DNA of 64,000 nucleotides from Geosiphon pyriformis uo1 (lineage: Eukaryota; Fungi; Glomeromycota), in assembly GCA_016748015.1 (NCBI GenBank), contig JAAOMT010000031.1, positions 310,001-374,000 on the forward strand, in the 5' to 3' direction. The notes beneath the pieces were generated by a model. The model made no database searches and had not been told where the DNA came from. It saw only the letters and a list, made by a program, of their open reading frames with translations. The position numbers and the translations under genes are program-made. Every line of letters starts with the position of its first letter. The stretch's first letter is position 1. This document shows, piece by piece, positions 14,681 through 63,341 of this stretch.

Positions 14681-14683
14681 GTA

Positions 14684-14684
<1 letters not shown>

Positions 14685-14730
<46 letters not shown>
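14685..14730. repeat. (AAT)n microsatellite
   Basis: Direct reading. Confidence 0.95.
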
Positions 14731-26538: not shown

Positions 26539-27852
26539 TCAATCAGCTTGAGTGGGATCCCAACCTATATTAAAGAAGAAATTAGCCTCACATCAAGAGC
26601 AAGAAACTTTCATTAATAAAAACTACATTTCATGCGTACCAGTCGTTAAATACTCATCCCATTGATTCATAATTTCGATATCTTCTTCCACAATTCGAAA
26701 ATCGTACACATTGGCATTCTCGATAATTCGTTCTTTTTTGGTACTTTTCGGTAGAACCACGTAACCACGTTGAAGACTCTAGAGCCTCGGTATTATGTTT
26801 AAGAAATTGAAAATCATAATCCAAACTTCATAGAAAACTCTATTACTTACCCAACGAATAAGAATTTGGGCTGGTGATTTGTTGTATTTTTTAGCTAATT
26901 CTCCCAATTTAAGATCATTCAGCTTTTTCCCCTTTGTCAGAGGCGAATAAGCCTCAATAACGATCCCTTCATCTTTGCAAAACGCCACAAGATCCTCACG
27001 ATTTAACCATGGATGAATCTGAAAGAAATAAAAAATTCCTATCATTTCAAAATACACACACTAAAACATCATTAACAAACCTCTATCTGATTCACAGCTG
27101 GTTTGATCTTCGGCTTGCTCGACAGCAATTCTTTCAAATGATGTACCCCGTAATTCGAAACCCCAATACTCCGCACCTTTCCCTGCTCTACTAATTCCTG
27201 TAAAGCTTGGTAACTTTCTTGTCGTTTCTTTTTGCCTGGAAGTGGTGAGTGGAGAAGTAGAAGATCAATGTATTCGGTGTGCAACTTTTGGAGAGATTCA
27301 TCCGCTGCTCGGAGGGTTTGTTCGTAGCCTTGATCCGAGTCCCAGATCTTGGTAGTAATAAAGATTTGATCGCGTGGAATTTCGCTGTGAACCAAAAAGT
27401 TAACTGGAGGTAAATTTAATTTATATTACTTTAAGATTATAGATTGATCTAACCTTTTAACAATTGCTCTACCAACGTCAGTTTCATTCCCATACAATGC
27501 CGCAGTATCAATATGCCTGTATCCCGCCTTCAAGATAAAAGTTAATCTTAATTCTGATAATATTTCTTCATTTTATGTGTTTCCTCATTATTATCAATTG
27601 ATTTGACATACTTCTAAAGCCCACAAAGTAGCATTTTCCGTTTCGTTTCCTTGCTTTGCTTTGTAAACACCTAAACCTTAAAGATCAAACAGAAAATTTT
27701 TGATTTCATTTAAATATTTTCGGTGAAATTGTGAACTCCTTTAACTTAATCGAAGGTCTTTTAAATGAATTGGCCAAGTCACCCAACAATGGTATCTGTC
27801 TTCCGTCGTTCAGAACGGCATAAGAATTAATGGATAAATCTTTTACACTCAT
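26539..27852 (-). CDS. Aldo-keto reductase (AKR5 / 2,5-DKG reductase-like), multi-exon
   Basis: [70 protein letters not shown]. Confidence 0.93.
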
Positions 27853-28075
27853 TATTATGGGTCTTGCTTATGTAAAATGATTTAATCTTTTATGTCGGAA
27901 ACATAAATTACGTAATTAGATCTTTAGGTACAGATCAAATTTTACATAATTACGAAATAAAACAATCAACACTCAATCCAAAGATTTCTAGTCTAACATA
28001 TGTACAGAATATTACAATAGCCTTTGTTGGATAGATTCAATTTCACTTTTTCAGGAAAAGGGAATCAGTCCAATA

Positions 28076-32597: not shown

Positions 32598-32601
32598 TTC
32601 T

Positions 32602-32612
32602 CGTGACTCACG
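32602..32612. promoter_or_regulatory. Palindromic AP-1/Gcn4-type site (CGTGACTCACG) in the tiny divergent intergenic gap
   Basis: TGACTCA at 32604-32610 with symmetric CG flanks, between head-to-head ATGs at 32597 and 32641. Confidence 0.35.
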
Positions 32613-32640
32613 TTAATTATAAAAGCCTTGTATAAAGCTC

Positions 32641-33797
32641 ATGGCTCATCAATCTTTTGATATGGATTCTCGTAAAGTCTTGGTATGTATGATTAATCCC
32701 TAGGTTACATCCTTAGAGTAAGAATGTTGATTTGAGGTTTAATGATATTTTTTTCAGTTAATTGGTTTAGGGAATTATACCCATCCAAACACGCGACATA
32801 GTATAGGAATGATGATGCTAGATTACCTCGTCGACCAATATAACCTGAAATGGATTTATAATGAAAAATGGCCAGGAAGTATGGCAAAAACTCAAATCAC
32901 AATCCAACCACAACCGATCAAATCTAAACCACGGCGTAAAAAGAAGGAAAAAAATGATGATAAAATGACGGAAGAGAATGATCAAATAAAAGAGGAGTGT
33001 GCTGTTGGTGATGCGACCCAACTTCTAGGCAAAAGTGAATCTGGATCTTTTGTCACTGCGTCCCCCAATCTAAATTTAGCAACATCAATACCAGTATCAT
33101 TACGGGTAACAAAGGTGAAAGAACAATGGAAACCACCAGACCCTATCACAATTGATTTAACTTTAATGAAACCACGATTGTTAATGAACGTAAGCGGGAA
33201 ATCTGTTAGCAAAGCTGGTAAATTATTGTTATGGGACTGATTAATTTAGTCTTCATATTTGTTAATGAAATCACTTTTTTTATTAATGATTCCTAAAAAA
33301 ATTTAGTCAAAGATCTTGGCTTCACAACTTCTAACATAATCGTAATCCATGATGACATGGGACGTGTTCCTGGAAAAATCAGTTTGAAAAATGGTGGAAG
33401 TGCAAAGTAAGTTTCAGTCAAAGTAACAACTATCTCACTCCTTTGATTTCCTAATTTATTGACTCCTTTTACCATGTGATCGTGAAGTGGGCATAACGGG
33501 ATCAAATCAGTAATAGAAAGGTTGGAAACTAATGTAAGTAATTATTCCATTTTATTTTTCTTGTACATAATTGACTTTGGATTAAAATAAGCTTCGATGA
33601 AAACATAGGAATTCAAACGACTTAGAATCGGAATTGGAAGGCCAGATCGAGAAATTGACGATAGATCACATGAAATCATCTCGGATTATGTGCTAGATCG
33701 TATCAGTGCCGCAGAAATGGAGGTATATACTAACGAAGTATTTCCTCGATGCAAAGAAGAATTGATAAAATTTGGTTTAAACGGTATGAAAGAGTAA
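32641..33797 (+). CDS. PTH1: Peptidyl-tRNA hydrolase (bacterial-type Pth, probably mitochondrial), five exons
   Basis: LIGLGNYTHPNTRHSIG, MKPRLLMNVSG, IIVIHDDM, GGSANGHNGIKS, RLRIGIGRP, DYVL. Confidence 0.93.
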
Positions 33798-33965
33798 GAA
33801 AATAGGGAATTAAAGTATTGATTATTTCTAGTAAATTTTTTTGATTTGTAAAATAATATAAAATAAAAATGATGCACACAAATACTTCCCTAATATTTTT
33901 TAAGTTTATTGCAGATTTAATGGTTACAAAAAAATATTTACAAATTTACAAGTATCAAAATAACA

Positions 33966-35798
33966 TCATTGAGAATATTTTTTGTCTATTGACTCGTTGA
34001 TGGCCTCCCTCAATGCCTTTTCTTTTTTCGTCCATTCCACCATTGCTTCTCCGGTAGAAATAACTGCAGAATCAACAGCCTGAACAATTCTGTCTGTAAT
34101 TTCAATCATCATAGGTTGATAACGACTGTAAGCGTCAATGCTAATTTCCAATAATACGCGGACTTGCGTACTGAGAAACACGGAAACTGTGTCCAGGACT
34201 ACCGGGAAATGTGCATTTACAATATCTCGAACCGTGTGAAAAAGACTTAATGATTTTTCACACAATAATAAAACCCATGCCATGAGGTAGGGCATAATTA
34301 ATTGATAAAAAGTGTCCATAGCTGCGAGTATAGTGAAAAATAGGTCTTGAGATATTTTTAAAAAACGGACAAAATGTAGAGAACCAAATGTAATCAATGA
34401 CTTTACTATCCGGAACAATTTTAATAAGGCCACTAGAATAACTTTGCTGTAGAAAATCCTGAGGGCTGCGATAACAGGATGAAAGAGTGGTGCAAAAGTA
34501 GACCAGAAGGTGTGGAGCAATTTTAAAAAATTGATTCGAATTGAGTTATATGCTGCAGATGAAATTCGTTGAAGATTGGCATGGATTAAAGGTAGGGCCC
34601 TTATGCATGGAATGATAACTGTTTGTTGAAACCAAATGGAAATAGAGAGAAATTCAAGGTATGAATAATAAGCTTCCTCAGCCAAACAAAGAGCTGATCG
34701 TCGCGAATTCTCAGTAATGATTGGGATAATTTCCGAGATATATTTTTTCATTAGAATCAGTAGTGTTCCTGTGACAATGATGCTATGAAGTTTTCTCATG
34801 ACAAAACGTAAATTCTGATTTCTTAGGATTCCATATAGAACCCAGGAAGTTTCAGATAAAACTGCCACCACCAGTCGCAGGTATAAGAATTTACCCAAAC
34901 TTAGTCCTAAGACCTTAGCTTTGTGATATCCACGAATTGCTAATTTCTCCAAACAATTAAACAAAGGTTGAAGAGCAGAGTCCCAAATATGTATACTTGT
35001 TTGCAAAGTTATAATAAACAGATCTCTAAAGTCTTGTGCCAGATCTCTTGCAAGAAAACAAAGACAATGCCAAGCTATCTTTTGAAGATATATTGCTCTC
35101 GGAATAGCCCATTTCACAGGCTTAATAATCAATTTAATGAAGGTACGTGCTAAAAAAACGCCAAGTGGATATAAAATGTGAATCCATCCAGCTTCAAATA
35201 ATTCAATTCCACGATTCCAAGAAATTTTGATTAAATGTCGTACTTTTTCAAACGCCACAATAAAGTAAAGCCAAATATTTTTAATGACCGGCCATGCATG
35301 AATTCGAGCCCAGTTTGCGAAACCTACAGTAGCCTGTATAAGTGGTTTTTGAATGTATAAACGCCAAATGAATGGTGCATTAGCAATAACTTTGGAAATT
35401 GTTGCTGCGCTCCATTTTATTCCATGCCCCAGCAAGTAGAGACCAGACTCTGCACTATCAAGTGAATAGAAAACAAATAACTCAAAAGTATCCCAAGCAA
35501 GTCGTAAAGATAAATAAACAACTGCTAAAGGGAGAAAAGGAATATATAAAGCGAGGTTTTGTTCCTGCGAGAGATTTAGAATGGGTTGCTGTTCTGGAGC
35601 TTTCCGGATCGTCTTTCGTTTAAAGAACTCTTCATGTAGCTGTCGCCAGTTCTTGTAATAGCTGATGGCCACATAAAGATAAAGAAACACAAATAATAGT
35701 AGGAAGATAATCCAGAAAGATATTCCTTCAACCAAAAGAGTTTCGGAGGGTTTAGAAAATGAGGGATCTGATGAAATAGTGTTAAAGGGAATTTCCAT
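33966..35798 (-). CDS. Hypothetical 610-aa hydrophobic/amphipathic all-helical membrane protein
   Basis: Long intronless ORF with gene-like base composition, an N-terminal TM helix and many aromatic amphipathic helices. Confidence 0.7.
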   Translation of the reverse strand: MEIPFNTISSDPSFSKPSETLLVEGISFWIIFLLLFVFLYLYVAISYYKNWRQLHEEFFKRKTIRKAPEQQPILNLSQEQNLALYIPFLPLAVVYLSLRLAWDTFELFVFYSLDSAESGLYLLGHGIKWSAATISKVIANAPFIWRLYIQKPLIQATVGFANWARIHAWPVIKNIWLYFIVAFEKVRHLIKISWNRGIELFEAGWIHILYPLGVFLARTFIKLIIKPVKWAIPRAIYLQKIAWHCLCFLARDLAQDFRDLFIITLQTSIHIWDSALQPLFNCLEKLAIRGYHKAKVLGLSLGKFLYLRLVVAVLSETSWVLYGILRNQNLRFVMRKLHSIIVTGTLLILMKKYISEIIPIITENSRRSALCLAEEAYYSYLEFLSISIWFQQTVIIPCIRALPLIHANLQRISSAAYNSIRINFLKLLHTFWSTFAPLFHPVIAALRIFYSKVILVALLKLFRIVKSLITFGSLHFVRFLKISQDLFFTILAAMDTFYQLIMPYLMAWVLLLCEKSLSLFHTVRDIVNAHFPVVLDTVSVFLSTQVRVLLEISIDAYSRYQPMMIEITDRIVQAVDSAVISTGEAMVEWTKKEKALREAINESIDKKYSQ

Positions 35799-36239
35799 AT
35801 TCTTTAATTATTGAAGATATGAAGTTTACAAATTTCTAAAGCGGCTAATTAAAACTTTGTACTGAAAATTCATCTTTAAAGTCTTGGAAGGTCTTGCTTT
35901 ATACACTTGGCCAAGTTGCTGATGATCCAATCTTTGCTATATTCGTGGTGAAATTTGCCGACAAGAATTTCCATAATGGACTAACAAAAAAAGAAATAGA
36001 ATTTATAATTATGATGAGATATAAGAATTAATTTAGAATTGTTTTACTGTGAAATAATATAATTAGAAATAGACAAGATACGTAAAGAAACGTTTATATA
36101 TCTTATTGGATCAAAAGAAATAAGTTAATTCGGGTTATCAAAAATTAAAAAAGGCTTTATAATGCCAAATTCAAATAGGATATCTATAATGTTTGTCTAC
36201 TATTAAGGTCAAATAACGTGTTATTGTAATAAGATTATG

Positions 36240-44489: not shown

Positions 44490-45319
44490 TTTACAGTGTT
44501 ACTTAAAAAAATTAAGAATATTATATAGTTAAAGAAATAGCCAATTGAAAGTAAATATAATAATAAAAAAATTCCAGAATTCCTTTGAAGAAATTCTGTA
44601 TAATACCAAATATATATATATAGTAGTAGCATTAAAAGCAAAAAAAGTATTCAGAATTCAGTTTAATTTTAGTTTAAGATCTCTTTTTTATTTATTAATT
44701 AATCCATCACTTTATAAATAATAATATTAACCAAAGTAAACTTACCAAAAATATCCAATAAACATACATATTATCATCTAATCTATATTATTGTCATTTA
44801 ATTGAAAATTTTTACTATTTATCTATTATTAACATAAAGTATTGATAATATTTAATACTTAATTATACTAAAATAATAGCTCTTGATCATGGCTATTGAT
44901 AAGATACTAATTCTTATTTTTTTTTGTGTTGTTTGTTGTTTATTTACTAATCTAAGAAATTAAGTACTGATTAATTAATGTCAAAAATAGCCTGATAAAA
45001 AACTCAAAAATAAGAGTATAGAATTTATAAATTAACAAATAGCTTATCAGAAGGGCATAACTGCCAGAATAAACTGGTTATTATGTTGAAGAAAAAAATT
45101 TGATAGAATAATCATTCCAAAAGACTACTAAAAACAATTATTGAATTTTTGTCTATTAAACAAAAAACTCTAACCCAAAACTTTCAGATATAAAAACTTT
45201 CAAAATATAAAAACCTTCAAATTACCAAAACTTTTAGATATTACTAATGTTATCAAGCTATTAAGCACCAAGTTATGAGTTTGTTATTTGTTTCAAATTT
45301 TAAATAATTATTTATAATA
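44490..45319 (+). mobile_element. Solo-LTR-like element family B, copy 1 (more decayed)
   Basis: Colinear with 59908-60770: CCAAT box, GAATTC-rich repeats, TATA, identical AATAGCTCTTGATCATGGCTATTGATAA core. The 5' limit is approximate. Confidence 0.7.
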
Positions 45320-45320
45320 G

Positions 45321-45898
45321 TGTATTAAATGTTTTTACTATTGTTTTTATCAATAAAAAGATAATGTTAAAAAAAATAGTAGTTTTTTGAATTGTTTATG
45401 GAAGACTAAATTATAAAAAAGAAGGTCTTCAATTTTACTGATCTTAATATTAGTAAATATTATAATATAAAGCTTAAAGAGCATACTTTTTAGCTTTTTT
45501 TGAAATTATAATCTAATTTCTTCATTTTTTTCATTTATTTTGTCTAATTAACTTTTTTTTATTTTTTATTATTTTCTTTTTGTCTGTTTTTTTTTCTAAT
45601 TAGAAAGTTATTATATATATACATATTTTAAATTATATATAATTGTACTTATTTTAACTAATTAATAAATAATTACTAAGTTATTAAATCTTCTGTTTAA
45701 TTGTGAATGTCTTTTGGCTTACTTGTTTATAATTATGTTAAATTAGACATGTTTGTACACATTTTGTATACTATTATATACATATTATATTTTATAATTT
45801 TATTTGTTGATCTTTATTATTTATACTATTATTTAATAATTAGTTAATATATTATATTATTATTATTTTTGATTTTTGTTAATTTCTATTAGATGACA
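45321..45898 (-). repeat. 3' LTR of the Gypsy element (TG...CA, 578 bp)
   Basis: Starts TGTATT and ends TGACA; aligns with 62764-63341. Confidence 0.85.
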
Positions 45899-48800
45899 TT
45901 ATTTTCTTCTTAAAATTAAGTTTTGTTAAAATTAATGTGCATTTTTTCAATTTAATGTTTAACATAAAAATCTGTATACTTGTTTAAACTATTTATTCTT
46001 ATAAGTCTTAAAATTTGTTATTAGTAAGCCTTCTAATTTTATTAAAAATAAATATATTTTTTTATTTGTTAATAATACTTTTGGGCAGTGTTAAAACAAC
46101 ACATAAAGTCGGTATACTGTCTTAAAATAGTATTTAAAGTTGTTTTTTTCAATTAGTTTTTCAAACTTCTGAAGTTTTGTTTTGTTAAATTCTTTGTTGT
46201 TTTTCTTGTTATAAATTGTTTGAAGATCTAATTGTGTGGCTATTATAAAATACATATAATAAAAAAAAACAATTAGATTTGTTTTTTTTTGAACATTGTA
46301 CTTTTTAGAAACTGAAATTTTTTCATGATTTTATTAATTAATATGTTAGCACTTTTTTATTTCTCATAATAAGAGTTAAAATAGTTTGTGTTTAATTTGT
46401 TTTCTCATATGACTAGATTTTTTATATATAATATTTTAGAATTATTAAGAGTAATTTCTAATGAAAAATTTTTTTTTGTAGTAATTGAAATAAAAATTAA
46501 GAAGTATTTATGATATCTTTAGATATATTTATAATAAAATAGATAAATAAATAACTAAACTAAACTATTTTATATATAAAAATTAAAGAAATTTTTTAAT
46601 AATTTGATGTTTTTGATTTTTTTTTAACTATTTTTGGAATTATTTTAATTTTTTTTAAATATTAATAATGATAATCCAAATGTGATTAATTGAATTAATT
46701 GTCTTATAAATAATATTTAATAATTACTATTAGCTTTAAGTCTTATAAAATTTGGTTAAAAGACACAATTAGTATATGTGTTCCTAATTTAGATATTAAT
46801 AAATCAGATAATTGTTATTAATATTAAATTTTTAATTAGTTATTATATACAACTTTTTTCAAAAATTTTTCACTTAAATATAACTTATATGTTTTATTAT
46901 TTAAGACATTATAAACATAGAAAAGATTGTTTTATTTGTTGTTAAATTTTCTGCTTTATTGTTTTTTTGTTTTTGTTTAATATAATAAAACTTTGTTTCC
47001 TATTTTGTAAATAATAGGTTGTTTTAAGAGTTTAATATTATATTAAATTTTTTATTGTTCTTAAAAATATTTAATACTATTAATTGTATATTAGCAATTG
47101 TCTTTTAGTTTTTTTAGTAATTTATACATTTATTTTTTAATAGTTTTTTATAAATTTTTTTTGTTATTGGTTCTGTTAAGTAGATATTTATTATTAGTTC
47201 TATAAATAATATAGTATTTTTTTTACATATTAATTCAAATAATGTAAATTTTATAGTGTCATGTTTTAATGTTCAATATATTAATAAAACTGAAAAAATA
47301 AATAAATCTCATTTTTGTTTTATTTTATTGCTTATTTTTGCCAGTAATTTACATAATGTTCTATTAAAATATTCTATTAATTTTATTTGTTTGTAAATAA
47401 AAAAATAATAAAAAAAGTTATTTTATTCCAAAACATTGGCTGATTTTAATAAGCAAATTATTTACAAAATAAATTTTTTAATCTGAAAATAGCTTTTTTA
47501 AACAGTCATGTTTACACATTAAATTTTTATATATAAAATCAGCAACTGATATAGCATTTGTGGTTTTAATAACTCTTGTTTCTGGTTATTTTGTTAAGTA
47601 GTTCACAATAATTACAATATATTAATTTTTTCTGATAATAATAGTTAGTAATTTTACCAAATTAATTTCTATTTTATTAAATAATTTTCTTATTTTAATA
47701 GATCACAAAAGTTTGGTTACTCTTAATTTTCTCTTTTTTTAATATATATTACAATTGTAAATATATTGAATAATATTAACATATATCTTTGTTCAATAAT
47801 ACAAACTAGTTGTCTACTAAATTCTGGCTTTTTTTGCAAAGTGTTTTACATTTAAATTTAAATGTATATTATAAAAAATAATTTTTTTTTTAGTTTTAAT
47901 AATTATTTAAAATAGATTATATTAGTGAAATTAATATAGTATATTGTTTTTAATTAGGTAGTATTTAGCTTGTTTTTGGATTTTTGTTTGTTTTTTTAAC
48001 AATAATTTTATTGGTAATTAAAGAATTATAAAATACTATATTAGGTATTAATATGTTTTAGTGTTTATTTTAATCAAGTAATAAGTGGTTTTTGGTAATT
48101 ATATGTGTTTTATTTGCAATAAACAGTTTGTATTGGTGTTTTTGGTATCTTTTTTACAAATAATATTATAGATATAAAGTTGTAATAAAGTAATTTATTT
48201 GATATAATATTTTTTTAATAAGCTTTTGTTTATTAGCCAAATAAGTTTTTTGTGGTTTGTAATAATATTAAAAGAGTTACATAATAAATATTGTCTAAAA
48301 TTTTATGATCTATATAATTACAAGACATTTTACTTTGTAAGTAGCATAATTTTTTTTAGCTATGCTTAAGCCTTTATTAATATATATGATTATATGCTCT
48401 TTTTTTATTTTATTGTAACAAAATAACATTCAAGTCTATTTAGAAACATTAGTTATAAGTATAAATTTCTTAGTAAAATTGGAATATACTAAGATTGAAG
48501 CTTTAATGAACTTTTGTTTCAAGTAGTTAAATGTTTATTTTTATTTTTTATTCTATTTTTATTTTGTATCTTTAGTTAATAATTAATTTAGAGATTAAAT
48601 TACTGTTAAAAAGTTATTTACAAATCTTTAGTAGTATAAAATAAATCTTAAAAATCTCCAAAGTTCAGTTAGATTTTAAGAACAAAAAAAAATTTTAATC
48701 TTCTTAATTTTTGCAGAATTGGATTTTATTCTGTTTTTTTCAATAATATGTTTTAGAAAAGTAAGTTGTAATTTTCTGAAGAAACATTTTTTGAAATTAA

Positions 48801-51800
48801 GTTTTAGTTTAATAGTCTAAAGTTTTATGAAAACTTGTTGTAAATATTTAAAATACTTTTCAATATTAGTGATATATTTGTATTGTTTAAATAGACTATT
48901 ATGAATTTTCACAAAACTCTGAAATAAACAATATTTATTAGTTATTGAAATATTATAGAAATATTGATTAATTTAAATAGTATTATATTAAATTTGTAAT
49001 TGTTATTTTAAGTTGTAAAGATAGTTTTTCTCAGTTATTGCAATTTATAACTACTTATTAATATTTACTAGTAAAATTTAGGGTCAAGAATTATTTAGAT
49101 TTTTCTAAAGTATCTAAGATTTTATTAATTTATAGTAAAAAATAAACATCTTTCTTGATAATATTATTGAGTTTTCTATAGTTAATACAGAATCGGACTT
49201 TTTTATTTTTTTTTATACTAAAATAATAAATAAAGATTATAAGCTCAAAAAAAATTGTATAAGTCTATTTTTTAATATTTAATTAATTTTTTTTTTATAA
49301 AATTATGTTCAAATAATAATACTTAATAAATATATTGCTTAATAGGTAATATATTTCCTATATGAATCTGGTAATAAGCCAAATTAATTTGACCAATTTT
49401 ATTTTTTGTGACAAAAATGTCTAAAAATTTTAAAATAAGTGTCTTTAATTGTTTTTGTTGTAAAAAGTCTAGTAATCTAAGATTAAGCTTAATTAACTCT
49501 TTATTGGTTATTTAGTAGTATTTAAGAGTTGACTTTAACAAAATTGGTTTAGTTTCACAATATAATACCAATTGAGAAAAGTTAAAGATTTTTTAAAATT
49601 TTTGTTAAATAATAATATTTGTACTTAAGTATTCTAAAACTATATTCTTAAGTAAATATATAATTTCTTTGGATAAGTTGTAAATAAATATTTTTATTTA
49701 TAAGTAGTTATAATATAATATATACAAATTGGTAAAACCAATTGGAAATTGTTTATAGATAATAATATAAGACTTAAATAAAAGATTTTTTTCTATTGTT
49801 TTCTTATAGATATTAAATAAGTATATTTCAAATAGTAAAATTGTAATTATTTTATCAATTTAGATTATTTTTATATTTTTTGTGTTATTTCTATATAGTT
49901 AATAGGTAAAGTAACTGTTTCTATAGAACTAAATTCTTGGATTTCTTATTTAATTTTTTTTAACTTTTTTTAGGTTTCAATAGTAATTAATCTAGCAATT
50001 CAGAATAAAGATAAAAAAATTGCTTGTATAATTTTTTTTAATTCAATCACATATAATTAGTTTAATTTATTATATAATAAGATTATAAAATTTTTTATGT
50101 ATTCAAAATCTATAATTTCTCTTTTAATATTAATTTTCTTCTTAGTTAAATTAGATTAAAAGACTATTTATATTATGACTCTAATTGGTATTTTAAATAC
50201 TATTTTTAAGTTTATTTTAATAATAACAAATAGTTCTAATATTAATGTTTTAGTTCTCAAAATATTAGAAATTAAATTCAGCATTGGTTAAATATACTTA
50301 CTTTGGAAGAATTTTTTGGTTGCTATTAATGAAGTGTTTAATATTTAATTTTTGTCAAAAATTAATAAAAATATGCAAGTCGTTTGATAACATTTTTAAT
50401 ATTTATAAAGTTTTGTTTTATGCTTTATAATTTAAATAATTTCTAAATTAAGCTGTTTTTTTAGATAATTTAAATTGAAATTAACAAAAATTAAACAGTT
50501 TTCATACAAATAAGTATTTATATATACAAAGTATTGTTTTTGTTCTGCTTATGTTAAACAAAATTCTTGATAATAATTTTGAAATTCTTGTAAAGAGTCT
50601 AAAAAATTGTGTTAGCAATTTTTTTAATAACTTTTGACAGTGTTTTTCAATTTTAAATTTCTTTAGCCATTTTACTTTATATGTTTGCTTTAACTATATT
50701 ATATAATTATTTAGCATTATTTAAGTAATAATAAATGTAATTTAGAGTTCTATTATAAGCAGTATCAAAAAAAGTTCTTTTTTTATCTAGTTAATAATAA
50801 AAACAGTATATTAACAAGTGAGATTACATCTGATTTCTCTAAATTACATATTAATTTAATTATATTTATTGGGTAAAATTTTTCATATACAATATAAAAA
50901 GTTTTGTCTTATTTTTTTGATTATTTTAAATATTTATACGTTTTTTTATAATATTAATTACAATAATAGTGGGTGGTTTGTTAATTATTTTCATATAAAA
51001 TAATATAAACTATTATAAAAGATAGTTTTTTTGACAAATTAAATATTGTAATTTTGGTTGATAACTTTAGTAATATTGGAGGCAAAAAAAATAAAATAAA
51101 ATAAAGTTAAAAGTTATATTAGTTTACACAGAAATAGATGGTAGTTTTTTATAGTTGTTTTCATTTTATACAACCTAATATGCTTTAATGGCTTTTGTTT
51201 TCAATGTTTTTTCAAATTCAAACTGGAGAAGATTATTTATATAGAAATTTTTTTTAAAATATCTGTATATAGTATATACTTATATGTATTGTTCTTGATA
51301 TATTAGTTGTAATTTTTAAGTCAATTAATTCAAAGTAATATTTGTTTTTTTTAACCAATTATTTCTAACTAGTGCTTGGTATTAAGTTGTATCTATTATT
51401 AATACTTTAATGAAAATAATTATTTTGTTTATGTTAAAGAAAAAGAAGTTAATTTTTCTAATTAGTATTTTTTTGGTTCTGTTAGCAGTAATAATAAAAG
51501 AGTTAATATTTCTGTTAATTTAATAACTTAATTGGTTCATTAATTAAATAATAATAATGTTTTTTGCTAATTTGCTATCTAAAACCAGTTTAATAGATTT
51601 ACTATCTGCTTTTGTTTTAGTATATATAACAATAATTGATTTATCTTTATTTAAAATAACCTTATTAAACAAAATAAAGGTGGATTTTTTTTCTTAAATT
51701 CAAAAAAAAATATAACAGCTAATGTTTTGTTAAGTAATAGTTATAGAAAAAATCATGCTGGTATTTTTATTGGTATTAATAACAGAATTTTTAATAATAT

Positions 51801-52267
51801 ATATGTTCTGATCTTTATAAAACATTATATTATAAGAATTTTATAATTTAGATAAGTTAAAAAATATTTGTTAATAATATATAAGAATATTGTATTATTT
51901 ATTTTAATTAGAGTTTTGTGATATTATTATGTTTGTTGTTGGCTAATCCAAAAGGTTTAAATTTGAAAATAAGTAATTTTTTCTTCAATTTGAGTATTAA
52001 AAATATAATTTGAAAGCTAATAATTGTTATAATTGTTGTAATAGAACTGAGTATTATGATTGAGCTGAGCTTTATTGTCATAATAGCTATTATTAAAAAC
52101 ACTATAAAATTGGTACTAAGTATTAATTCTAAAAAAAAAATATATTTTAATTTGCACTTTTTCTTTCGTCAATCTCCTGACCATAGCAAGAACAAGAAGT
52201 AAACTGATAGAATAGCTTTCTCCTTGTTCCTTTTTTCCCCTTTCATCTTAAAGTTATTTCTCTCAAT

Positions 52268-54221
52268 ATGCCTTTTTATGTTAACATAGAACTAACAGGC
52301 TCTTTTGCTGGTGGTTCGGGTTCTATTTTGGTGGGTTTGGGAACCCATTCTGGTGTTAAATCTAAGTGTTTGGTGAGTGCTCACTTGCGTGGTGCATCCT
52401 ACAAGAAACCTAAAAAGCCTGCTGCTGTTGGCAGTGTGGTCAATACATCTGCTGGCCCTATTAGCTTGGAAGATTTGGGTAAAGCTGGTGCCAAACCTGC
52501 AGTGTCCTGGGGTAGTGATGTCAGCAACATAGCGAGCAGTGTGAGTGGTCTTTTGGATGCAGAAAATATGATAAACTTGGTTGTCAAAGAGATGAGCTAT
52601 GCAGAATTTGGTAAGAACAATGGCATAGATGAAAATATGCCGAGGAAGACTCGTATTCAAACATACATGCTGGACAACCCACCAAAACAACTGTTGTTTA
52701 ACCGTATAAGTGATGATGACGATGTGCTAAAGCTTCCTCTCCTTATAGTTGATGGTGCCAATCAGGTGCCGCATATTAGGTTACATGCCCTGGAAAAAAG
52801 GAATTTTAAGCCAGTAAAATCTTTCACATTGGATATTGAGGTTTCGGCAGACAAATGTTGATAGGTTGATGGCAGTTAAAAAAATTTTTTATCAAGTTAA
52901 TGGATTTGGGAGAGCTTCAATTTCTTCAAAATTTCTAAGAATAATAAGATCTTTATTTACATCTGAAAAAAATTTATTTAAGGCAAGGGGATTGGCAATT
53001 AGTGAGAAGATTTTGGTAAATAATAATCTAAGGAAAGTAAACAGACATTCAGATTGGGAAGTGATTGTTAAGAAGATCCCAGTAAATCTTCTCAAATCGG
53101 CAGTGGATTCAGCATTTTCTAAATTTGGCAAAATTGTTTCAATCAAAATACAGCTGATTGGTCTTTGGCAAAAGACCCTGGTTAAGTTTAAGTCGTCTGA
53201 AGTAGCTAGTCTGGTTGTATCCAAATGGTTAGTCCTTATGAGAAAAAATTTGGTGCATGTGGCTTTGGCAGTCAGTGATAAACAAATGTGGGTATCAAGA
53301 GATCAGCATCAGGCTTTGCTTTATACTCTTCCAGTTGGCACTACTGCTCATAATCTTTCCAGTTTGTTGGAATCATATGGTGGGAAAACTTGTTTTATTG
53401 GCCGTAATCCTAATTTATATGTTCATAATAGATGTGCTATAATTTGTTTTGGTGATGAGGTGTTCAAGTTGGCTGCTATTGGTACCGTTCCAGTTTTCAA
53501 AAGTGTAAGTTTGCATTAGGCTGGTCTTTCTTTGGCCAGTTGCACTCATTGTAAAAAATTTGGTTATGTTACGGTCAACTGTTCCTTGGGTGAGAATTCT
53601 GGTGTTCGTGGGAAGAGGGTGGTTTCTGATCAAGATCGGATTCATCTGGCTGGGATATATAAGAAAAAGTTGGCTCTTATTGCTCGTCCAGTCTTATTTG
53701 GTAATAAAACATGGGCCTAAGTTGCTGGTGGCTCTCCTTCTCATGTGGTTCTCTCTGGTTTGGCTGGTGCTGGTTTGCATTCTGGTTTGGTTACTCCTTC
53801 AATGACGACTAATTCTCTCACCATTTCTCATTTGAATAACCAGCTGGCAATTTTGGAGTGCTCTTTGGAGCTTTTGACTGACTGTGTTTCTGGCATTTTG
53901 GTTCGACTGAAATCCATTGGTTTGGTTCCTGCGGCGAATCCTTCTTTGAGCTCTCTTCCTGCTGTTTCTGAGACTTTGACTTCTGATGTGGATTCTGATA
54001 TGATTGTGGATACTGCTTTGGTCTTGTCTGGCACTCCTTCATCTATTGTTCACAATGCTGTTGTTGAGCTCAACTCTAGTAGTTCCAAAGTTCTCACTGC
54101 CAAAGTGGGTGGTTTGGAAACAAAGTTGATTGCTTTGGAGGTCTCAGTTGGTTCAGTTTTGGATAAGTTAAATATTTTGTGCTTTGGTTTGGGTTTGTCA
54201 GTTCCCCTGTCTTCTCAATGA
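52268..54221 (+). pseudogene. LINE ORF1 (RRM-like region plus degenerate CCHC knuckle), interrupted
   Basis: VIVKKIPV...AFSKFGKIVSIKI and CTHCKKFGYVTVNC (His replaced by Tyr); one frameshift near 52850 and in-frame stops. Confidence 0.85.
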
Positions 54222-57200
54222 CTCACTTAATTTGGAAAATTGCTGCGTGTAATGTCAAAGGTATGAACAATTGTGCGAAGCAGACAGACATTATACGTTG
54301 ACATAAGGACATGAACAATCTGGTCTCCATTGTTACTGAGACAAAGTTGAGAGACATGGTTTGTCCATGGATCACTGATAAGTTCGATGGTGTTCATGTT
54401 TTTACTTTTGGTCTGGATTCTGGTCACATGGGATCTGATGTTGCAATAATTATAGACTCTTCTTTAGCAAAGCATGTGTGCAAGATTTCAGAGGTACCTG
54501 GTTGGCTGTTATCAATAAGGCTGCTCTTTGGAAATAAGCTTTCTGTGTTTATTCTGGGGCTGTATGCTGGTATGTTTTCAGTGGTTCAGTTTTCTCAGAC
54601 TAGTGATATCAATTTTCTCGTTTCCAAAGCTGTGAATAAGACTTTTTTTGTCATTCTTGGTAGTGATTTCAATGAAGATGGGTCTCATAAATGTGCCAGT
54701 TTCAGGAAATGTTTTGATTTGGGTCTGGTTAACTCTCTAAGTGGAAGCACTTTTGTGAGGTCACCAACATGGTGCAATTCTTGTGGTGTTGCCAAGACAA
54801 TTGATTACGTGTTGGTCTCCTCTAGTTTAGTTAATGCAATCATGGATCGTGGTGTGGTGGGTGTTGAGTATTTTTTTAATACTGATCATAGGGCTGTTTC
54901 TGTTTCTGTGGGTCTGGGTGGTTTGTTGGATGTGCAGCTACTGTCACTATGCAAACAGGCCAATAAAGATTGTTAGAAGTTCGATGTTAAAAATGCCAGT
55001 AATGGAAAGTGGTTGGAGTTTAAGAATGCTACAGCTGCTAATGCTTCTATGCTTTCAGACGTATTTGTTGCAGCTACAAAGTTTTCAGATAAGGATGCAA
55101 TGTGGGACGTTGTTTGCAAAATATTGATTCTCTCAGCTGGTGAGACGTTCAAGAAAAAATGATTCAAGAGTTATAGTAGTGTTTTCAATAAGGTTTTTTC
55201 TAAGTTTTATAGACTGGAACTGCTTGTGTCTAAGCTGGTTAAGGCCTTTCATCTGGTTTTTGGTGGGAATTTTGCTTCTTTGTTGGATACATGGGATAGG
55301 CTTGACTCAGTTGGCGCCTCGCCAGTGAAGTCTCTGTTTCTTTTGAATTCTGGTTTTAATGCTATTCACTCTGAACTGGCTAAAGCAAGGAAGGTTTACT
55401 GCTCTTCAAAGATGATGGAGTCTAAACACACTGAGGAATCTCGTATTAGACAGGCTATTGAGAGAAGAATGGAGAGTTTTGAAATGGACAAGTGATGCAC
55501 CATCAGAAGTGTTCTGGAGTGTCCTTTCCATAAGGTGGTATTGAATCACTTGGTCATGGGTGAAGAGTTGGTTCTAGAGCTGAATTTGGTTAAATCTAAG
55601 GTTGATAAGATCATGGAAGATTGAACTAAGAAGTGTGTAGTGATGCCAGATATTTCTGATGACTGGGTGCACCAATTTCAGTCTTTGAATTATGTCTTTG
55701 ATGATGTCTTCTCTGAAGTAATGTGTTCGATTGGTTTTGATGAGTTGCTTACAGTTGTCTTTAATTTGTTCAATGGTAAGGCGGCTGGTCTTTCTGGTAT
55801 CTCCAATAAATTGTGGAAACACTGTGATAGAATGGTTTTGGATATGCTTTTGTTATTGCTGAATTTTTGTTTGGAACATGAATCTGTACCTGGACCTTGG
55901 AAGGAAGCTTGGGTGTCAATGATTTCTAAACTGTATGAATGGGAGGGCGTTCTTACAAATACCCGTCCTATTGCATTGATTGAAATGGCCTGCAAGATTC
56001 TTTCTAAGATTCTCTCGAACAGAATTTCTTCAGTCTGCAACAGATTTAATGTTCTGTGTGGGAACAATTTCTCTGTATTAAAGAGTACGTTGACACAATC
56101 ACCCATTTTTGCCATTGGTTTTGTGGTGGAAGATGCATTGGAAAAGGGCTGGGAACTGTGGCTGGTTTTGTAAGATATGCGAAAAGCGTATGATTCTGTT
56201 GGCTGAATGCATCTCAAAAGAAGTTTGATTAGGATTAAGATGTGTGACAAGTTTATTAGATTTTTTGATGACATTCACAATAGTTGCACCAACAGGGTGA
56301 TGACGGATTTTGGCTTGACTGATGGTTACTATGTTCACGATGGTCTGGACCAAGAGGAGGTTTTTTTGCCACTTCTTTGGTGCATATTTTATGATTCACT
56401 CTTGTGTAAAGTCAAATGACAGGAAAGTGTGTGTGGTTACAGGTTGAACTCTCATTTTATTTCCAGAACTGGCCAGGTAGAGCCTCAGGCCAGATTGACG
56501 TCATTCTTGGCTGTGGGTGCTTTTGTAGATAATACTATTTGGATTGGTGGTAGCCGGGCTGCTATGCAGCACATCCTCAATGTTGCTAGTGAATTTTTTA
56601 GGATTAATGACATTTCAATTAACAATGACAAGACTGTAGCCATTTCTATCAACAGCCAGATTGTGAATTCTTCTTTAATTATTAGTGGCTTGCCTATCTT
56701 TATCACCAAGAAGGGTGAATCTCATTAGTATTTGGGTATTTTTTTGTCTTCTGAAGGTCTTTCGATGCCTAGTCTGGCTAAAGCTCGCTTGAACATTCAG
56801 TTCTTTGTTAATCTTGTTCTGAGAAAGGCAATTTCAGACAAACAATTCACGTATTTGGTTTCTGCAGTTCTTCTGCCTATCATTAGCTACAGAACTCAGT
56901 TCAGCTTCGTTCCTGTTAATGTGTATAATAAGTGGGACTCTATGGTTCGCAGATGCTTGAAGTCTAAGTCTGGGCTGCCATTCGACTTTTCCAATGATGC
57001 AGTTTATCATCCTTTTTTGTACAATTTTAAAACTTTTGAACAGATCCAAGCTGAGAGTAAATTGGCTGCTGTTTTGGCTTTTGCGAATTCAGTTGGTATT
57101 TTGGGTCGTTTGTTTTCTCACAGGTCTCATGATCTTCAGGCTCTTAGTTGGCATCCCTGTCACTCTTTGCTGTTTTCAGCTTATGTTGATGTTAGCCTTT

Positions 57201-58908
57201 CAAACAACTTTCTGTCAGGTGTAGTTCGTATTTTTTCTGGATGTGACTTGTCTTTGGGCATTTCTCTGGCCAGCGCTTTTCATTTTCAGGATGGCACTCC
57301 TATGTCTATTGTTTTAGGTGAGCCAAGATTTCTCAAATGTGTCCCTTCGCTCAAGCACTATGGTATCACTTTTGTGGAACAGCTTTGTGACAGACATGGT
57401 GTTGCTTTCAGTTGGAAGATCTTCAAATGTTGGAAAAGACTGGATTCCCATGGCCCGGTTTCTGTTTGGTTTGATATTTCTGTTCAGTTTCTTGGTAGCG
57501 TTGTTCTTTCTTCTGTGAGCTCTCCTCCTGTGAGTGATCATGCTTCTCCTGATATTTGACTTTCTCACAATTTTGGCATTGTTTGCGACAATTTGTTGGA
57601 CATTGATGCTGCTGTTCACCTCTCTGTATATATGGATGGGTCTTTAAGTGGTCTGGATACTGTTGGTATGAAGGCTGGTGCTGTTGTTTTCTTTGAGGAC
57701 ATTGATTCGGGGTTGGATGTGAAGATGTCTGGTTTGGTTTCCTCTATGCTTATGGAGTTGCAGGCCATTGCTCTGGCTCTCGAGTGTGTTCCCGCTTTTC
57801 ATTCAGTGGATTTGTTCTCGGACAGCCAGGCTGCTTTGGATGCATGCAAATCCGAATCTCTACTAGCTCGGCCAGACTTCAGGAATTGTTGTTGGATTGA
57901 GCATTGCCACATTGCTAATGTTATTCGTGATAAGAATTTGGATGTGAATTGGGTCAAAGTAAAAGATCATTCAGGTGTCCCTAGCAATGAACATGCTGAC
58001 TCACTTGCAGGGGTCACTGCCTCATCTTCTTGGTAGCTGCTGCACAGGGTTGATGAATGGTTTTTGAGGGCTGGTGACTCTGCCATTTTTGGTAATTCAA
58101 GACATTTTGTTTATGATATCTTCTGGTCAGTTCATCGGGTGTGTTGGGAGGTTGGATCCGGTTCCCGAGTTTTGGTGGATAGTTTGCGAAGTGATGTTAA
58201 TTGGGCCAGGTCTGTTTTGGTGTGACACCCAAATTCCCATATGGCTGCTGGCTTTACTAATTTGTATACTGCTGGCTTTCAGACTTATTTCATAAAGGCT
58301 CTACATCATTGACTTCTTGTTGCTGTGCATAAGTGTCTATATGATAAGCTTTACCCCAGTGTAGTGTGTTTATTCTGTAATGAGGTTGAGATCTCTGATC
58401 ATGTTTTTTCCTGCTCTTTTGATGCCATTGGCCATGAGCATTTGATGAACACTTATGCAGCTGTTTAGAAAGCATGCTCTGGTTTATCTCGTTCTTCTTC
58501 ATGTATTTTCCAGTTACTGTCTACTTGTGCTTCAAATTGTGTGGTTGGGGTGGCCCTATGTAAAGGATTTGTTTTCAATAATTGGTATTGTGAATTTGTC
58601 TCTGTTTTTGAGGATTCCAGGGTGGCAGCTTGTAATATGGTGTCTTTTGTGCATGAGTTTTGTGCTGTATTCCAGATGAAATCTGGTTGGTTTGTGTGAG
58701 ACACTGGGCAGTAATAGAAAAGGGTAGGCTGATTCCTCGTAATGGCTCTGTTCCTGCCTCTGTTTCTGGTTTTTCTATGGGCCTTTTAGCAGGTGTTGTT
58801 AGATTGTTGGAGGTTGCTAATACAATTAGCATTCATTTCGGGTTTTGTAGGTCTTGTTTATTTTTTTCTGGTGCTTGTAAAGAGGTTTCTGTTCATATAA
58901 GTGCATAG
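54218..58908 (+). pseudogene. LINE ORF2: AP endonuclease, reverse transcriptase, RNase H and C-terminal Zn finger, with many premature stops
   Basis: CNVKG, TETKL, GSDFN, IDYV, TDH (APE); RPIALIE, DMRKAYDSV, GLDQ, AFVDN (RT); YMDGS, ELQAI, SDSQ, KDHSG..NE.AD (RNase H); CLFCNEVEISDHVFSC. Confidence 0.93.
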
Positions 58909-59907
58909 TGTTGTTCTGACTGGTCTGAGTGGCTGGTCATGTACAGAAAAGGCATGATTCACACCTAGTTTAGATCATTTAATGATGTATTATACTAGGT
59001 AGTGTTTGGACTTCATTCATTAAATAAAATAAAATAAAAAAAATTAATTCTGAAATATTATATATTAATTGCTAAAAAATGAGTTTTATAAATTGTTTTT
59101 TTATAAATTTTAATAGAATTGCAGTAATTAGCATTCAGCTTTAATATATCTATACTTTTGACAATAATAACATATTATATTTTATTGATTTCTATTTTGG
59201 TTTTGATAACTATAATCTTAAAGAAGTATTTGGTTTCACTGTTATAATAGTTGATATTAATTTGGTATCTGGGGTCTGGTATTAGCAAAATAACTTCTAT
59301 TTTCTAATATAATTTCTCTTTAAGTTGAATAATCTTGTTTTTTAGTTTTTAGTATTATTGTTATTTATTACCAAGTTTATTATTTTATTATGATTAACTT
59401 TTTTTTTGGCTGACTTAATATTTCAAGCTAATATAATAGCTTGGAATAGTTTTTTTGAGTGTTGTAATCTTATTTGGTTTAAAATATTATTTTTTAATTT
59501 TCTTATAAACTGATTAAAAATCTAAAAAGCTATGTAATAATTGTTTTTTATAACTCTAATTTATTATATGACATAATTAAATCTATCTAAATATTTAATT
59601 ATTATTTTATTAGATTGTTATTTAATAGTATTGAATTTATTTTAAAGTTTGATAATAGTATTGAGATTACAAAAATATTTTAGAAATGTGTTTTAAAACT
59701 GTGTAAAAATGTCAAATTTAAATTTTAAATTTTAATATCAGAAGTTGGTTGTATTTTTTAAGAAAAATAGTAAAATCTAAAAACTATAAATCTTATTTTA
59801 ATTATTTGCTAGAATTGTTTTTTGTGTTTCTTTAATTCAAATATGAACTTTTTTTTTCTAATAAAGTTAGTCAATTTTGTAATATAAAAAATAGTTATTT
59901 CTTAAAA

Positions 59908-60770
59908 GTTTACAGTATTATTTATAGAATATAAGAAGTATATATTAGCATAAAATTAGCCAATCAGAAGTAACCATAATAAAATGTGGAATTCCAAGAT
60001 TTCTCTCAAAGGAATTGCAGAATTCCAAGAATTTTAGGATTCTCATACAAGGAATTGCAGAATTTCTCTTAAAAGAATTGCAGGATTTCAGGAATTTCAG
60101 GATTCCTGGTGTGAAGAATTGAGGAATTGAAGAATCTCAATTATGTATATATAGCAGTAGTATTAGAAGTAGAAAAGACAGACCTCTCAGTTTAGATTTG
60201 ATCTAAGCAATCTTTTATTCACAAATATTAATAAATAATTATTTACTATATCAATTCACTCTCCACTATCAACACTTTATGTTGATAGTAATTGATACTT
60301 AACCACACTGGAACAATAGCTCTTGATCATGGCTATTGATAAAATACTAATACTCATTGTCTTGGCTTATTTCTTTATTTTTTTTCTTTTATTTTTCTTT
60401 TTATTTTCTTTTATTATTTCTTTGTTTTTACTAATTGATTAAAAAGAAAAGTGCTCAATTATTGACGTTAAGGATAGCCTAGTAAAAGACTCCAAAGGAA
60501 GGGTATAAAGTTGACAATTTAAGGATAGCTTACCAGAAGGGCATTTTTGCCAGATTACCAGTCATCACACTGAGAAAAAAATTTGATAGAATTGTGATTT
60601 CGAGAGGCTACTGAAAAGACAACAACTAAATTTTTGTCCATTATACAAAGAACTTAATCCAAAACTTTTAAACAAATAGCACCTTCAGATATCCTAAACA
60701 ATACAATCAATTGAGCACCAAGTTACAGGTTTGTTATTTGATTTGAAACCCCAAATAATCACCTGTAACA
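59908..60770 (+). mobile_element. Solo-LTR-like element family B, copy 2, nested in the Gypsy internal region
   Basis: CCAAT (about 59960), tandem GGAATTGCAGAATT-like repeats (59988-60135), TATATATAG (about 60146), ends ...CCTGTAACA; homologous to 44490-45319. Confidence 0.7.
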
Positions 60771-61374
60771 ACAAATATTTAAATAAAAAAAGCTATGAAT
60801 TCTGATTTTAATTTGCTTGAAGATTTTTTTTTTAATACTCTGCTTTTTAGATTACATTTAAACTTGAATTTTTAGTTTAAATTTAAATTTTGGTTTAGGT
60901 TTTCAAATAGTCTAAAAGTTTGGTTGTAGAGATAATAAGTTTAAAAATTATAAGAATATCTTTTTAAAATAAATCTTTCAAAGAATTTTTTCTAAATAAA
61001 ATATAAACATAGTTAGAAATTTGGAAGACATAACTTCTAATAATATATTAATTTGGTTATCTAGTAACAAATAGTAAGATAAAATTTTTAATAATGTGAT
61101 TTAAAATTTTTTATATAATAAAATTAAAGTTTATTATTAATTCACAATTTTTTAATAAGATGTTTATACTGAAGTTTTTAGTTTTTATTGGTTATCTTAA
61201 TTATTGCTGTTTTTTTTGTTTTTGTTAAAAGTAAATAAAAAACTTTATTAGATGTATTTTTTGATTTTTTAGTGTATTTTTATTAAAGTTATTAAGAATA
61301 ATTGTGTATTAGATAATATAGTGTATTAGATTAATTTTTAATATAGGCTTTATTTTTGTTTTTAAAGTTTTAAA

Positions 61375-62234
61375 CCTTGTCTGAATAAGTATTAAATTTG
61401 ATAATGCATATAGTAATTAAAAATTAATTTAGTTAAAGAACAATTATTAGGTAATTCCAATCTTTTTTGAAATTAATAATATAAATTTTGGCTAAAAAAA
61501 TTAATAAATATTACTAGTTTTGTTATTTTAATCTACTAATTTACACAATTAATTATTACTAAAATTTAAATAGCTTAAATAGATTAAAATTAAATCTTAA
61601 AGTGTACATCAAATGTTAAAAAGTATTTTTTTAGTAGTTGTATTAAATTAATTTATATAGTATTTTAGATTAAGTAATAATATAAAAAATTATTTAATTT
61701 TAATATAAAAATAAGTATATTAGTTTTAATTAATTCAGATTTTAATTTTATGCTGGATTTCTATTTAATAAATTACTACTATTTTTTTATTTAANNNNNN
61801 NNNNNNNNNNNNNNCCTTGTCTGAATAAGTATTAAATTTGATAATGCATATAGTAATTAAAAATTAATTTAGTTAAAGAACAATTATTAGGTAATTCCAA
61901 TCTTTTTTGAAATTAATAATATAAATTTTGGCTAAAAAAATTAATAAATATTACTAGTTTTGTTATTTTAATCTACTAATTTACACAATTAATTATTACT
62001 AAAATTTAAATAGCTTAAATAGATTAAAATTAAATCTTAAAGTGTACATCAAATGTTAAAAAGTATTTTTTTAGTAGTTGTATTAAATTAATTTATATAG
62101 TATTTTAGATTAAGTAATAATATAAAAAATTATTTAATTTTAATATAAAAATAAGTATATTAGTTTTAATTAATTCAGATTTTAATTTTATGCTGGATTT
62201 CTATTTAATAAATTACTACTATTTTTTTATTTAA
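61375..62234. other. Assembly gap (20 N, 61795-61814) flanked by an apparently identical 420-bp duplication
   Basis: 61375-61794 is repeated at 61815-62234 exactly across the Ns. Confidence 0.9.
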
Positions 62235-62763
62235 GAATTTAAAGATTAGCTTAATGAGTTTTTCTTAATTTTTAATAGTTATTGAATAATTTTTCTGATA
62301 AATGTTCTTTTATTTGATTTATTGTTTTTGTATAATGTTTTTGTTAAAATTGCTATTAATAGTTACTACTATACTAGTTCTCCAAGGAAAATTCTTATTA
62401 TATCTTTATATTTTTAATTATGTCTTTTCTTAAAATTTTTGTAAATATATATTTTTTATATTGTACTAATATTAAACATCTGTATTTTTTTGTTTATAGT
62501 AAAATAGTACTCTATTTTTAATAAATTTAAAGAAAATTAAAATTAAAAAATAGAATTCAATAAAATTAGTATTTGTAAAATAATTTTAATTAGAAATTAT
62601 TATTTTTTTCAAGATATAAAAAACTTATTTTAAATTTTTAAGTTAACTGTTAATTTTGGCCAAGATATTATTACAAGTAGTTTTTAGATAATTTTATGTA
62701 GTTTTTATCCTTTTAATATGTTTTCAATCTTGTTAAGTTTGAGTTTTGTTTATGTTTTGTTGA

Positions 62764-63341
62764 TGTATTAGATGTTTTTATTATTGTTTTTATCAATAAA
62801 AAGACAATAATAGAAAGAAGAAGTAATGGTCTTTTGAGTTATTTATGAAAGACCAGATTATCAAGAGAAAAGTCTTCAAGTTTACTAATTTTAGTATTAG
62901 TGAATATTATAATACAAAGCTTGAAAAACACACTTTCTAGCTTTTTTTGAAATTATAATTTAATTCTTCTATTTTTTTTGTTTATTTTGTCTAATTAACT
63001 TTTTTTTTCTTTATTATTTTTTTTTGTCTGTTTTTTTCTTAGTTAAAAAGCTATTATATATATACATATTTCGAGTTATACATAATTATGTCTATTTTAA
63101 CTAATTAATAAATAATTGTTAAGATATTAGATTTTTTATTTAATTGTAAATATCACTTAGTTTACTTGTTTATAATTATATTAAATTAGATATATTTGTA
63201 TATGTTTTATATACTATCATATACATATTATATTTTTTAATTTTATTCATTAATCTGTACTATTTATACTATTATTTAATAATTGATTAATATATTATGA
63301 TATTATTATTTTTGATTTTTATTAATTTTTATCAGTTAATA
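62764..63341 (-). repeat. 5' LTR of the Gypsy element (578 bp, one terminus mutated)
   Basis: Aligns end to end with 45321-45898. Confidence 0.85.

Follow-up and report, generated by a model that had tools for sequence, protein, structure and literature searches.

Strand-coordinated bursts of change, one in each round, are a hallmark of repeat-induced point mutation (RIP). When 1,239 genomes were screened, 130 species belonging to four classes of ascomycetes bore strong RIP signatures (PMC12543289), and a RIP signal of under 0.5% has been reported in rusts and their kin (PMC12210899). Outside the Dikarya, an index-based RIP signal has been described in the Entomophthorales, with 24.2% for Zoophthora radicans and with caveats by its authors (PMC11105155), and RIP signatures are said not to have been detected in Gigaspora margarita or the Mucoromycotina in a source that describes the transposon defence of arbuscular mycorrhizal fungi (AMF) as methylation together with RNA interference (10.1101/2021.03.30.436303). 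A related kind of mutagenesis is known from Zymoseptoria tritici, in which Dim2 raises mitotic mutation tenfold, with more than 95% of the changes being C>T and lying in methylated regions (PMC8016269). In this paper, we analyse a window of 64,000 nucleotides (contig JAAOMT010000031.1, positions 310,001 to 374,000) from Geosiphon pyriformis (Glomeromycotina; Archaeosporales), in whose genome long terminal repeat (LTR) elements make up 41.2% (PMC11952901). The main element in the window, at positions 45321-63341, reads from its order of domains as a decayed Ty3/Gypsy LTR retrotransposon on the minus strand.

A sequence-only reading of this DNA had proposed a host outside the Dikarya, which is right, as Geosiphon is an early branch of the AMF. 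We show that the repeats of the window have undergone C>T decay that is confined to them and falls mostly outside CpG; in outcome it resembles RIP. It likely represents mutagenesis of transposons that is linked to methylation and mostly non-CpG, in a lineage for which we found none reported: Geosiphon had no match in 12 of the 19 supplements of PMC12543289, the available parts of PMC13297926, PMC7862722 and PMC13443276 hold nothing on such decay, and our search found no published report of it in Geosiphon or the Glomeromycotina, though a prior mention, for instance in the Geosiphon genome papers (Malar 2021, Sorwar 2024), is possible. The process inactivates transposons irreversibly by mutation, and indices based on CpA mostly miss its spectrum.

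Direction and sequence context of the decay

The element keeps the Ty3/Gypsy order of LTR, gag knuckle, reverse transcriptase, RNase H, integrase and LTR. Its parts and the insertions that it contains are as follows, with GC as a fraction and CpG as the observed/expected ratio (o/e).

45321..45898, minus strand: 3' LTR of the Ty3/Gypsy element, GC 0.149, 0 CpG
45899..45920, minus strand: purine-rich tract adjoining the 3' LTR, by eye a likely polypurine tract
46827..48060, minus strand: decayed integrase, inside a 477-codon frame (46830-48260)
48200..49600 (bounds approximate), minus strand: decayed reverse transcriptase and RNase H, frameshifted, Pfam RT_RNaseH_2 E 4.6e-13
52135..59042, plus strand: younger long interspersed nuclear element (LINE) nested in gag, GC 0.40, CpG o/e 0.29, A-rich tail
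59131..59172, minus strand: decayed gag zinc knuckle with CCHC spacing, which we take to be the gag-knuckle motif
59916..60770, no strand assigned: nested LTR-like insert of a second family, 855 bp, GC ~0.29, 2 CpG
61375..62234, no strand assigned: two 420-bp copies, 100% identical, around a 20-N gap (61795-61814)
62764..63341, minus strand: 5' LTR of the Ty3/Gypsy element, GC 0.156, 1 CpG

The two LTRs are each 578 bp long, as had been proposed, and are 84% alike. Their full alignment holds 486 identical positions, 79 transitions, 9 transversions and 8 gap columns that cancel in length, which gives a transition/transversion ratio (Ts/Tv) of 8.8 (p 5e-7 against 2:1 and p 0.011 against 4:1). 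The earlier manual count for 45377-45494 against 62824-62941 was exact, with 22 transitions, 2 transversions and 0 gaps; the claim that CG had been hit as well in that segment fails, with 0 of the 22 transitions at CpG, 8 at CpA, 2 at CpC and 12 at CpT. Over the whole pair, when G/C is taken as the older state, 8 of 8 CpG, 32 of 50 CpA, 6 of 10 CpC and 33 of 55 CpT sites differ, and the three non-CpG contexts show no heterogeneity (p 0.91). Plain CpG deamination yields only CG/TG, CG/CA and TG/CA pairs, and therefore explains just 8 of the 79 transitions, the other 71 being non-CpG. The A/T alleles are divided between the two LTRs (40 in one, 39 in the other), and each set is evenly split between the strands. 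The pair implies that 40-45% of the non-CpG G/C was lost per copy, with 0.0039 transversions per opportunity and a C>T-to-transversion ratio of ~150; this spectrum predicts an equilibrium near 3% GC, with a reverse rate obtained by scaling the LINE data. Positions 45200-46100 compared with the contigs of run X1 (1410, mostly other copies) gave 286 differences, and the transition bias is family-wide, because these copies show 233 transitions and 53 transversions; runs X2 and X3 contributed 1 and 0 contigs.

Whether both LTRs come from one insertion does not affect these conclusions on C>T decay. A single origin is plausible from the internal order, and it is unproven because one transversion and one transition separate the 4-bp flanks; of the 5-bp flanks, 2 of 5 positions agree. 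The assumption that the LTRs were identical at insertion is thus not confirmed, and unrelated copies of the family (8 X1 pieces) show 11-17% divergence from the stretch, roughly that seen between the two LTRs. The centre dinucleotides of the 4-bp flanks of the nested insert (59912-59915, 60771-60774) and of the main element (45317-45320, 63342-63345) are CA or TA and could be decayed CpG, in a tiny sample whose main pair is mismatched.

To polarise the changes, the element's pol was compared with the conserved residues of relatives. A word-index search with the decayed integrase gave 0 matches among 7997 candidates; a HMMER search gave 1817, and the comparisons use the 150 relatives listed. 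Out of 184 conserved columns scored, 96 were kept and 88 changed, and C>T or G>A alone suffices for 71 of these 88 (shuffle null 0.13 +/- 0.02, maximum 0.20 in 500 shuffles). The 90 polarised steps comprise 57 G>A and 33 C>T; only 7 lie at CpG and 83 are non-CpG, far from the condition of nearly all changes at CpG under which the earlier reading was to be given up. Residues with two obligatory G/C at codon positions 1-2 were kept at 3 of 37 columns, and those with none at 68 of 80. Within the integrase, 53 of 72 scored non-CpG sites were lost, and the 477-codon frame carries 34 stops with GC1, GC2 and GC3 all ~0.16; GC1 is ~0.4-0.5 in intact-looking metagenome relatives versus 0.15 in the element. 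Decay of 5-methylcytosine (5mC) at CpG only, with 8 of 79 LTR transitions and 7 of 90 pol steps to its credit, is rejected.

The closest intact integrase relatives listed (P0122-P0126) are short proteins of 268-427 aa. Since these are short and P0123-P0126 match from query residue 67-70 or thereabouts, the main element is probably of a Gypsy lineage in which integrase has an open reading frame (ORF) of its own.

The two LINEs extend the spectrum beyond the Gypsy element. The younger copy was scored against the family majority at 1108 of 1480 codons (5 ambiguous and 16 multi-step codons excluded) and shows 20 events in 42 opportunities at CpG, 36/259 at CpC, 22/235 at CpT and 17/333 at CpA, with 26/1099 reverse changes and 17/4807 transversions. 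An older relative, at 7162-11347, was scored over 744 codons (11 ambiguous and 82 multi-step excluded) and has lost 12/12 CpG, 31/75 CpC, 66/140 CpT and 69/161 CpA, a non-CpG loss of 41-47%, with 7/556 reverse changes and 61/2227 transversions, the latter including subfamily differences. At E <= 1e-50 the family numbers 576 or more related proteins, and the 120 best-scoring of the 576 were analysed: in codon-internal contexts, non-CpG C>T amounts to 4.4-11.9%, reverse change to 1.07% and transversions to 0.31-0.32%. All 120 listed relatives are Geosiphon 'hypothetical proteins', none above 78% amino-acid identity; the family is large, possibly specific to Geosiphon, and may inflate its gene count.

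Directional C>T change well beyond CpG is therefore borne out in LTRs, pol and LINEs alike. The proposal that it acts in all contexts is not supported as worded, since it hides that CpG goes 3-10 times faster in the young LINE (20/42 versus 5-14%). CpG ranks first, followed by CpA, CpC and CpT at similar rates, and there is a mild 5' preference of T > A > C > G that either strand shows (0.150-0.159 when T precedes versus 0.069-0.082 when G does, about twofold). Only codon-internal contexts were trusted; trinucleotide contexts at third codon positions were set aside, because CpG already decayed in the window would be misread as CpA. The rough third-position table, with CHG at 0.071 not above CHH at 0.096, does not indicate a plant-like CHG pattern.

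Confinement to repeats and load of the nested layers

The comparison with other DNA of the window rests on the following features.

2969-3955: Ydc2 ORF, 100% identical to a G. pyriformis protein at NCBI, the single match among 2033 candidates
7162..11347, plus strand: old LINE relative, heavily mutated, gapless 656-codon match
23500..36000, no strand assigned: control of gene-dense host DNA, GC mostly 0.30-0.40, CpG kept, RIP composite index -0.57
44497..45319, no strand assigned: second LTR-like family, an older copy that adjoins the main element

The statement that neighbouring genes keep normal GC and CpG agrees with 12 host ORFs, in which GC at fourfold-degenerate sites (GC4) is 0.20-0.41 and CpG is kept. 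For 17 introns that were chosen by eye and whose bounds are approximate, GC is 0.23 and CpG o/e 0.56; in nine non-coding stretches that look unique, GC is 0.19-0.42 and CpG o/e 0.42-1.30. The large old transposon stretches lie at GC 0.14-0.23 and CpG o/e 0-0.10, with AT islands down to 0.08, and CpG ends abruptly at the borders between transposons and genes. The C>T decay is thus confined to repeats, because the loss seen in the LTR pair would not have let older unique DNA retain 23-42% GC; the argument is one from composition, in a genome region whose unique DNA is itself AT-rich.

The AT islands that had been predicted are present and have sharp borders. CpG-poor islands at 8-14% GC occupy 12000-14700, 36250-38500, 43250-44250 and 4250-5000, and probably represent remains of transposons close to saturation; between 13389-13954 and 37987-38537, taken in inverted orientation, there is 67% similarity.

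The older of the nested layers carry more load. GC falls from 0.40 in the nested LINE to 0.29 in the inner LTR and 0.15-0.17 in the surrounding Gypsy element, so that nesting follows load, and in the second LTR-like family the outer copy bears the A/T allele at 90 sites versus 34 in the nested copy; the 86 transversions between these two were left unused, as the insertions are unrelated and their global alignment is gappy. The changes are also strand-symmetric. Among the 120 LINE copies, for which 799 of 936 strongly conserved columns were used and 137 were dropped as lineage polymorphism, there are 2276/19650 sense C>T and 3489/35712 sense G>A changes, without heterogeneity of strand share (chi2/df 0.71); same-strand neighbouring events are not in excess (2902 versus 2932 +/- 33 when shuffled), in a test insensitive to many light rounds.

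The 18 kb are not one element: the interval includes the 6.9-kb LINE, the 855-bp LTR-like insert and the 420-bp duplication. The LINE has a target duplication of 13 bp (12/13 alike) and an ORF2 (54218-58657) in a single frame with 14 stops; its ORF1 is RRM-like, and ORF2 bears RNase H. The 4-bp flanks of the second-family insert are alike at 3 of 4. The 420-bp duplication is a probable assembly or scaffolding artefact, and its reading as a young repeat was rejected, given that the pair flanks an N gap.

Among the remaining features, two tandem small uncharacterised genes on the minus strand (17669-18088 and 19303-19710) share ~70% DNA identity and keep their CpG. The minus-strand ORFs 29070-32612 (1180 aa) and 33966-35807 (613 aa) have no Pfam match, and the end of 29070-32612 with the two ORFs below it resembles, by eye, a P-loop ATPase-type gene. 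No transfer RNA genes were found in the window.

Mechanisms, breadth and consequences

The cause is reasonably likely to be deamination, left unrepaired, of cytosines that are methylated in every context within transposon chromatin, in the manner of DIM-2. Transposon chromatin would be densely methylated in all contexts, CpG most fully by an enzyme of DNMT1/DNMT5 type and non-CpG cytosines less fully by one of DIM-2 type, and deamination would escape repair. The 5mC would then turn to T site by site during vegetative growth, spontaneously or aided by the methyltransferase, and copies would drift towards ~3-8% GC, losing their frames through stops at Trp, Gln and Arg codons. As expected of a Dim2-type process, C>T change in the transposons is directional, strand-symmetric and independent from site to site, and includes non-CpG sites. 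In Rhizophagus irregularis, 32.5-49.5% of all cytosines are methylated by liquid chromatography-mass spectrometry, and DNMT1, DNMT2, DNMT5, DIM-2 and RID are said to occur in the AMF clade (PMC8298701). As only 16% of the cytosines in the genes of our window are in CpG, such levels would, across species, point to non-CpG methylation. The sequence-only reading had left the choice between a homology-directed and a heterochromatin-directed process: the heterochromatin or methylation branch fits better, and the homology branch lacks both CpA bias and strand clusters.

Several observations weigh against all-context methylation with unrepaired deamination as the cause. The C>T-to-transversion ratio of the LTR pair looks high if the chemistry is passive; an enzyme may be required. 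The Dim2 effect in Z. tritici falls to more than 98% on CpA and spares CpG, whereas here CpG goes first (PMC8016269). Deamination load among the 120 copies ranges from 3.7 to 14% and is overdispersed (chi2/df 3.06), and it does not follow transversion load (Spearman 0.12, p 0.19), where a simple clock predicts correlation; the transversion counts in this test are small and include subfamily differences. The 120 copies are moreover biased to lightly mutated ones, because they are the best-scoring of 576 and annotated ORFs.

A bolder possibility is that an enzyme-driven mutator dedicated to repeats operates in the Glomeromycotina, as a RIP-like defence, free of context, by DIM-2/RID-type methyltransferases that indices based on CpA would largely overlook; this we consider fairly unlikely. 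Such a mutator, if homology-triggered and premeiotic, would also document sex in the genomes of fungi that have long passed for ancient asexuals, and the origin of RIP would predate the Dikarya.

True RIP or a close variant, in which duplicates are recognised by homology, probably at a sexual stage that is cryptic, and are mutated by an enzyme of RID type whose context preference is relaxed, in addition to ordinary decay at CpG, is unlikely. It would account for the near-pure C>T/G>A spectrum (79 of 88 LTR substitutions are transitions) with indels almost absent, for the sharp borders with genes and the confinement to repeats seen in composition and CpG borders, for the lack of any relative closer than 78% amino-acid identity among the 120 listed LINE relatives, and for a load that is overdispersed and uncoupled from transversions; RID is also reported for the AMF clade (PMC8298701). 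However, the CpA preference of RIP is missing, CpA being lowest in the young LINE and on a par with CpC and CpT in both the LTRs and the old LINE, and neither strand heterogeneity nor runs appear in the 120 copies, though many light rounds would blur that signal. The composite RIP index speaks for RIP in the Gypsy halves, being positive in 12/12 and 4/7 of their windows (16/19), and is negative in 12/12 windows of the old LINE; strict thresholds are passed by 1/19 Gypsy and 0/12 old-LINE windows. Load rises with nesting age, and the kingdom-wide screen saw strong signatures in four ascomycete classes only (PMC12543289).

An AID/APOBEC-like cytidine deaminase acting on transposon complementary DNA (cDNA) or on exposed chromosomal single strands is very improbable. 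The mild 5' preference on both strands and the very high C>T-to-transversion ratio would suit it, but cDNA editing predicts G>A on the sense strand only and both strands are mutated about equally; there is no clustering, CpG goes first, the preference is merely about twofold, and non-coding LTRs and old islands keep decaying after insertion. APOBEC-type editing of cDNA, without sense-only G>A, clustering or a strict motif, is rejected.

It is likewise very improbable that the elements are simply old, in a genome with an extreme AT- and transition-biased spectrum offset by selection near genes and no repeat targeting beyond CpG: introns at GC 0.23 and several intergenic stretches at 0.19-0.25 do come near the old transposons (0.15-0.23), but the LTRs lost 40-45% of their non-CpG G/C with only 9 transversions in 574 sites, on a course to ~3% GC, the integrase lost most of its scored non-CpG sites, the older fourfold sites of the 12 ORFs could not have kept their GC under such loss, older intergenic DNA keeps GC up to 0.42 and CpG o/e 0.91, and the tandem host gene pair has a Ts/Tv of 0.64 (47:74), a weak control that is old and partly coding.

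Related patterns occur at some loci beyond this stretch. Of 80 metagenome Gypsy loci, the 33 at >=37% identity were scored, and four of them show at least 10% non-CpG loss (L076, 21/83; L025, 12/80; L012, 11/90; L022, 9/86) with reverse change almost absent. One further locus, L020, shows CpG-only decay (6/11 CpG versus 0/66 non-CpG), so that related Gypsy elements meet different host regimes. Integrase fragments from Dentiscutata (11 of 15 changes deamination-type, 0 reverse), Gigaspora (8 of 14, 1 reverse) and Cetraspora (6 of 15, 2 reverse) follow the same trend, with CpG and non-CpG inseparable there.

With C>T at ~150 times the rate of transversions, transposons would come out too old in LTR dating and in Kimura landscapes. 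Many Geosiphon 'hypothetical proteins' are mutated LINE copies (120/120 among the matches listed). The decay opens to test the role of DIM-2/RID homologues, its mitotic or sexual timing and its sharing across lineages.

Comparison with known systems

The mutagenesis by Dim2 in Z. tritici is the model for the mechanism proposed here. Both are repeat-confined and near-pure C>T, and destroy transposon ORFs, and the process in Z. tritici needs no sexual stage; the dependence on Dim2 has been demonstrated there (PMC8016269), and for Geosiphon dependence on an enzyme of this type is a prediction. RIP in Neurospora and other Pezizomycotina likewise leaves repeats saturated with C>T/G>A, sharp borders of AT islands and few indels, with near-identical copies not found (PMC12543289). 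The decay described here differs in that it has no CpA bias and no strand-coordinated clusters, its load is graded by nesting age and its lineage lies outside the Dikarya. RIP is premeiotic, homology-triggered and dependent on RID. With CpG methylation of transposons and 5mCpG decay in R. irregularis, of the same subphylum, the repeats of the window share the fastest loss at CpG and its disappearance from old copies (10.1101/2021.03.30.436303; PMC8298701); unlike plain 5mCpG decay, most changes here are non-CpG (71/79 in the LTRs and 83/90 in pol). The Entomophthorales share with Geosiphon a RIP-like signal claimed outside the Dikarya (PMC11105155), which rests there on a composite dinucleotide index and here, in the Glomeromycotina, on polarised changes with a resolved context spectrum.

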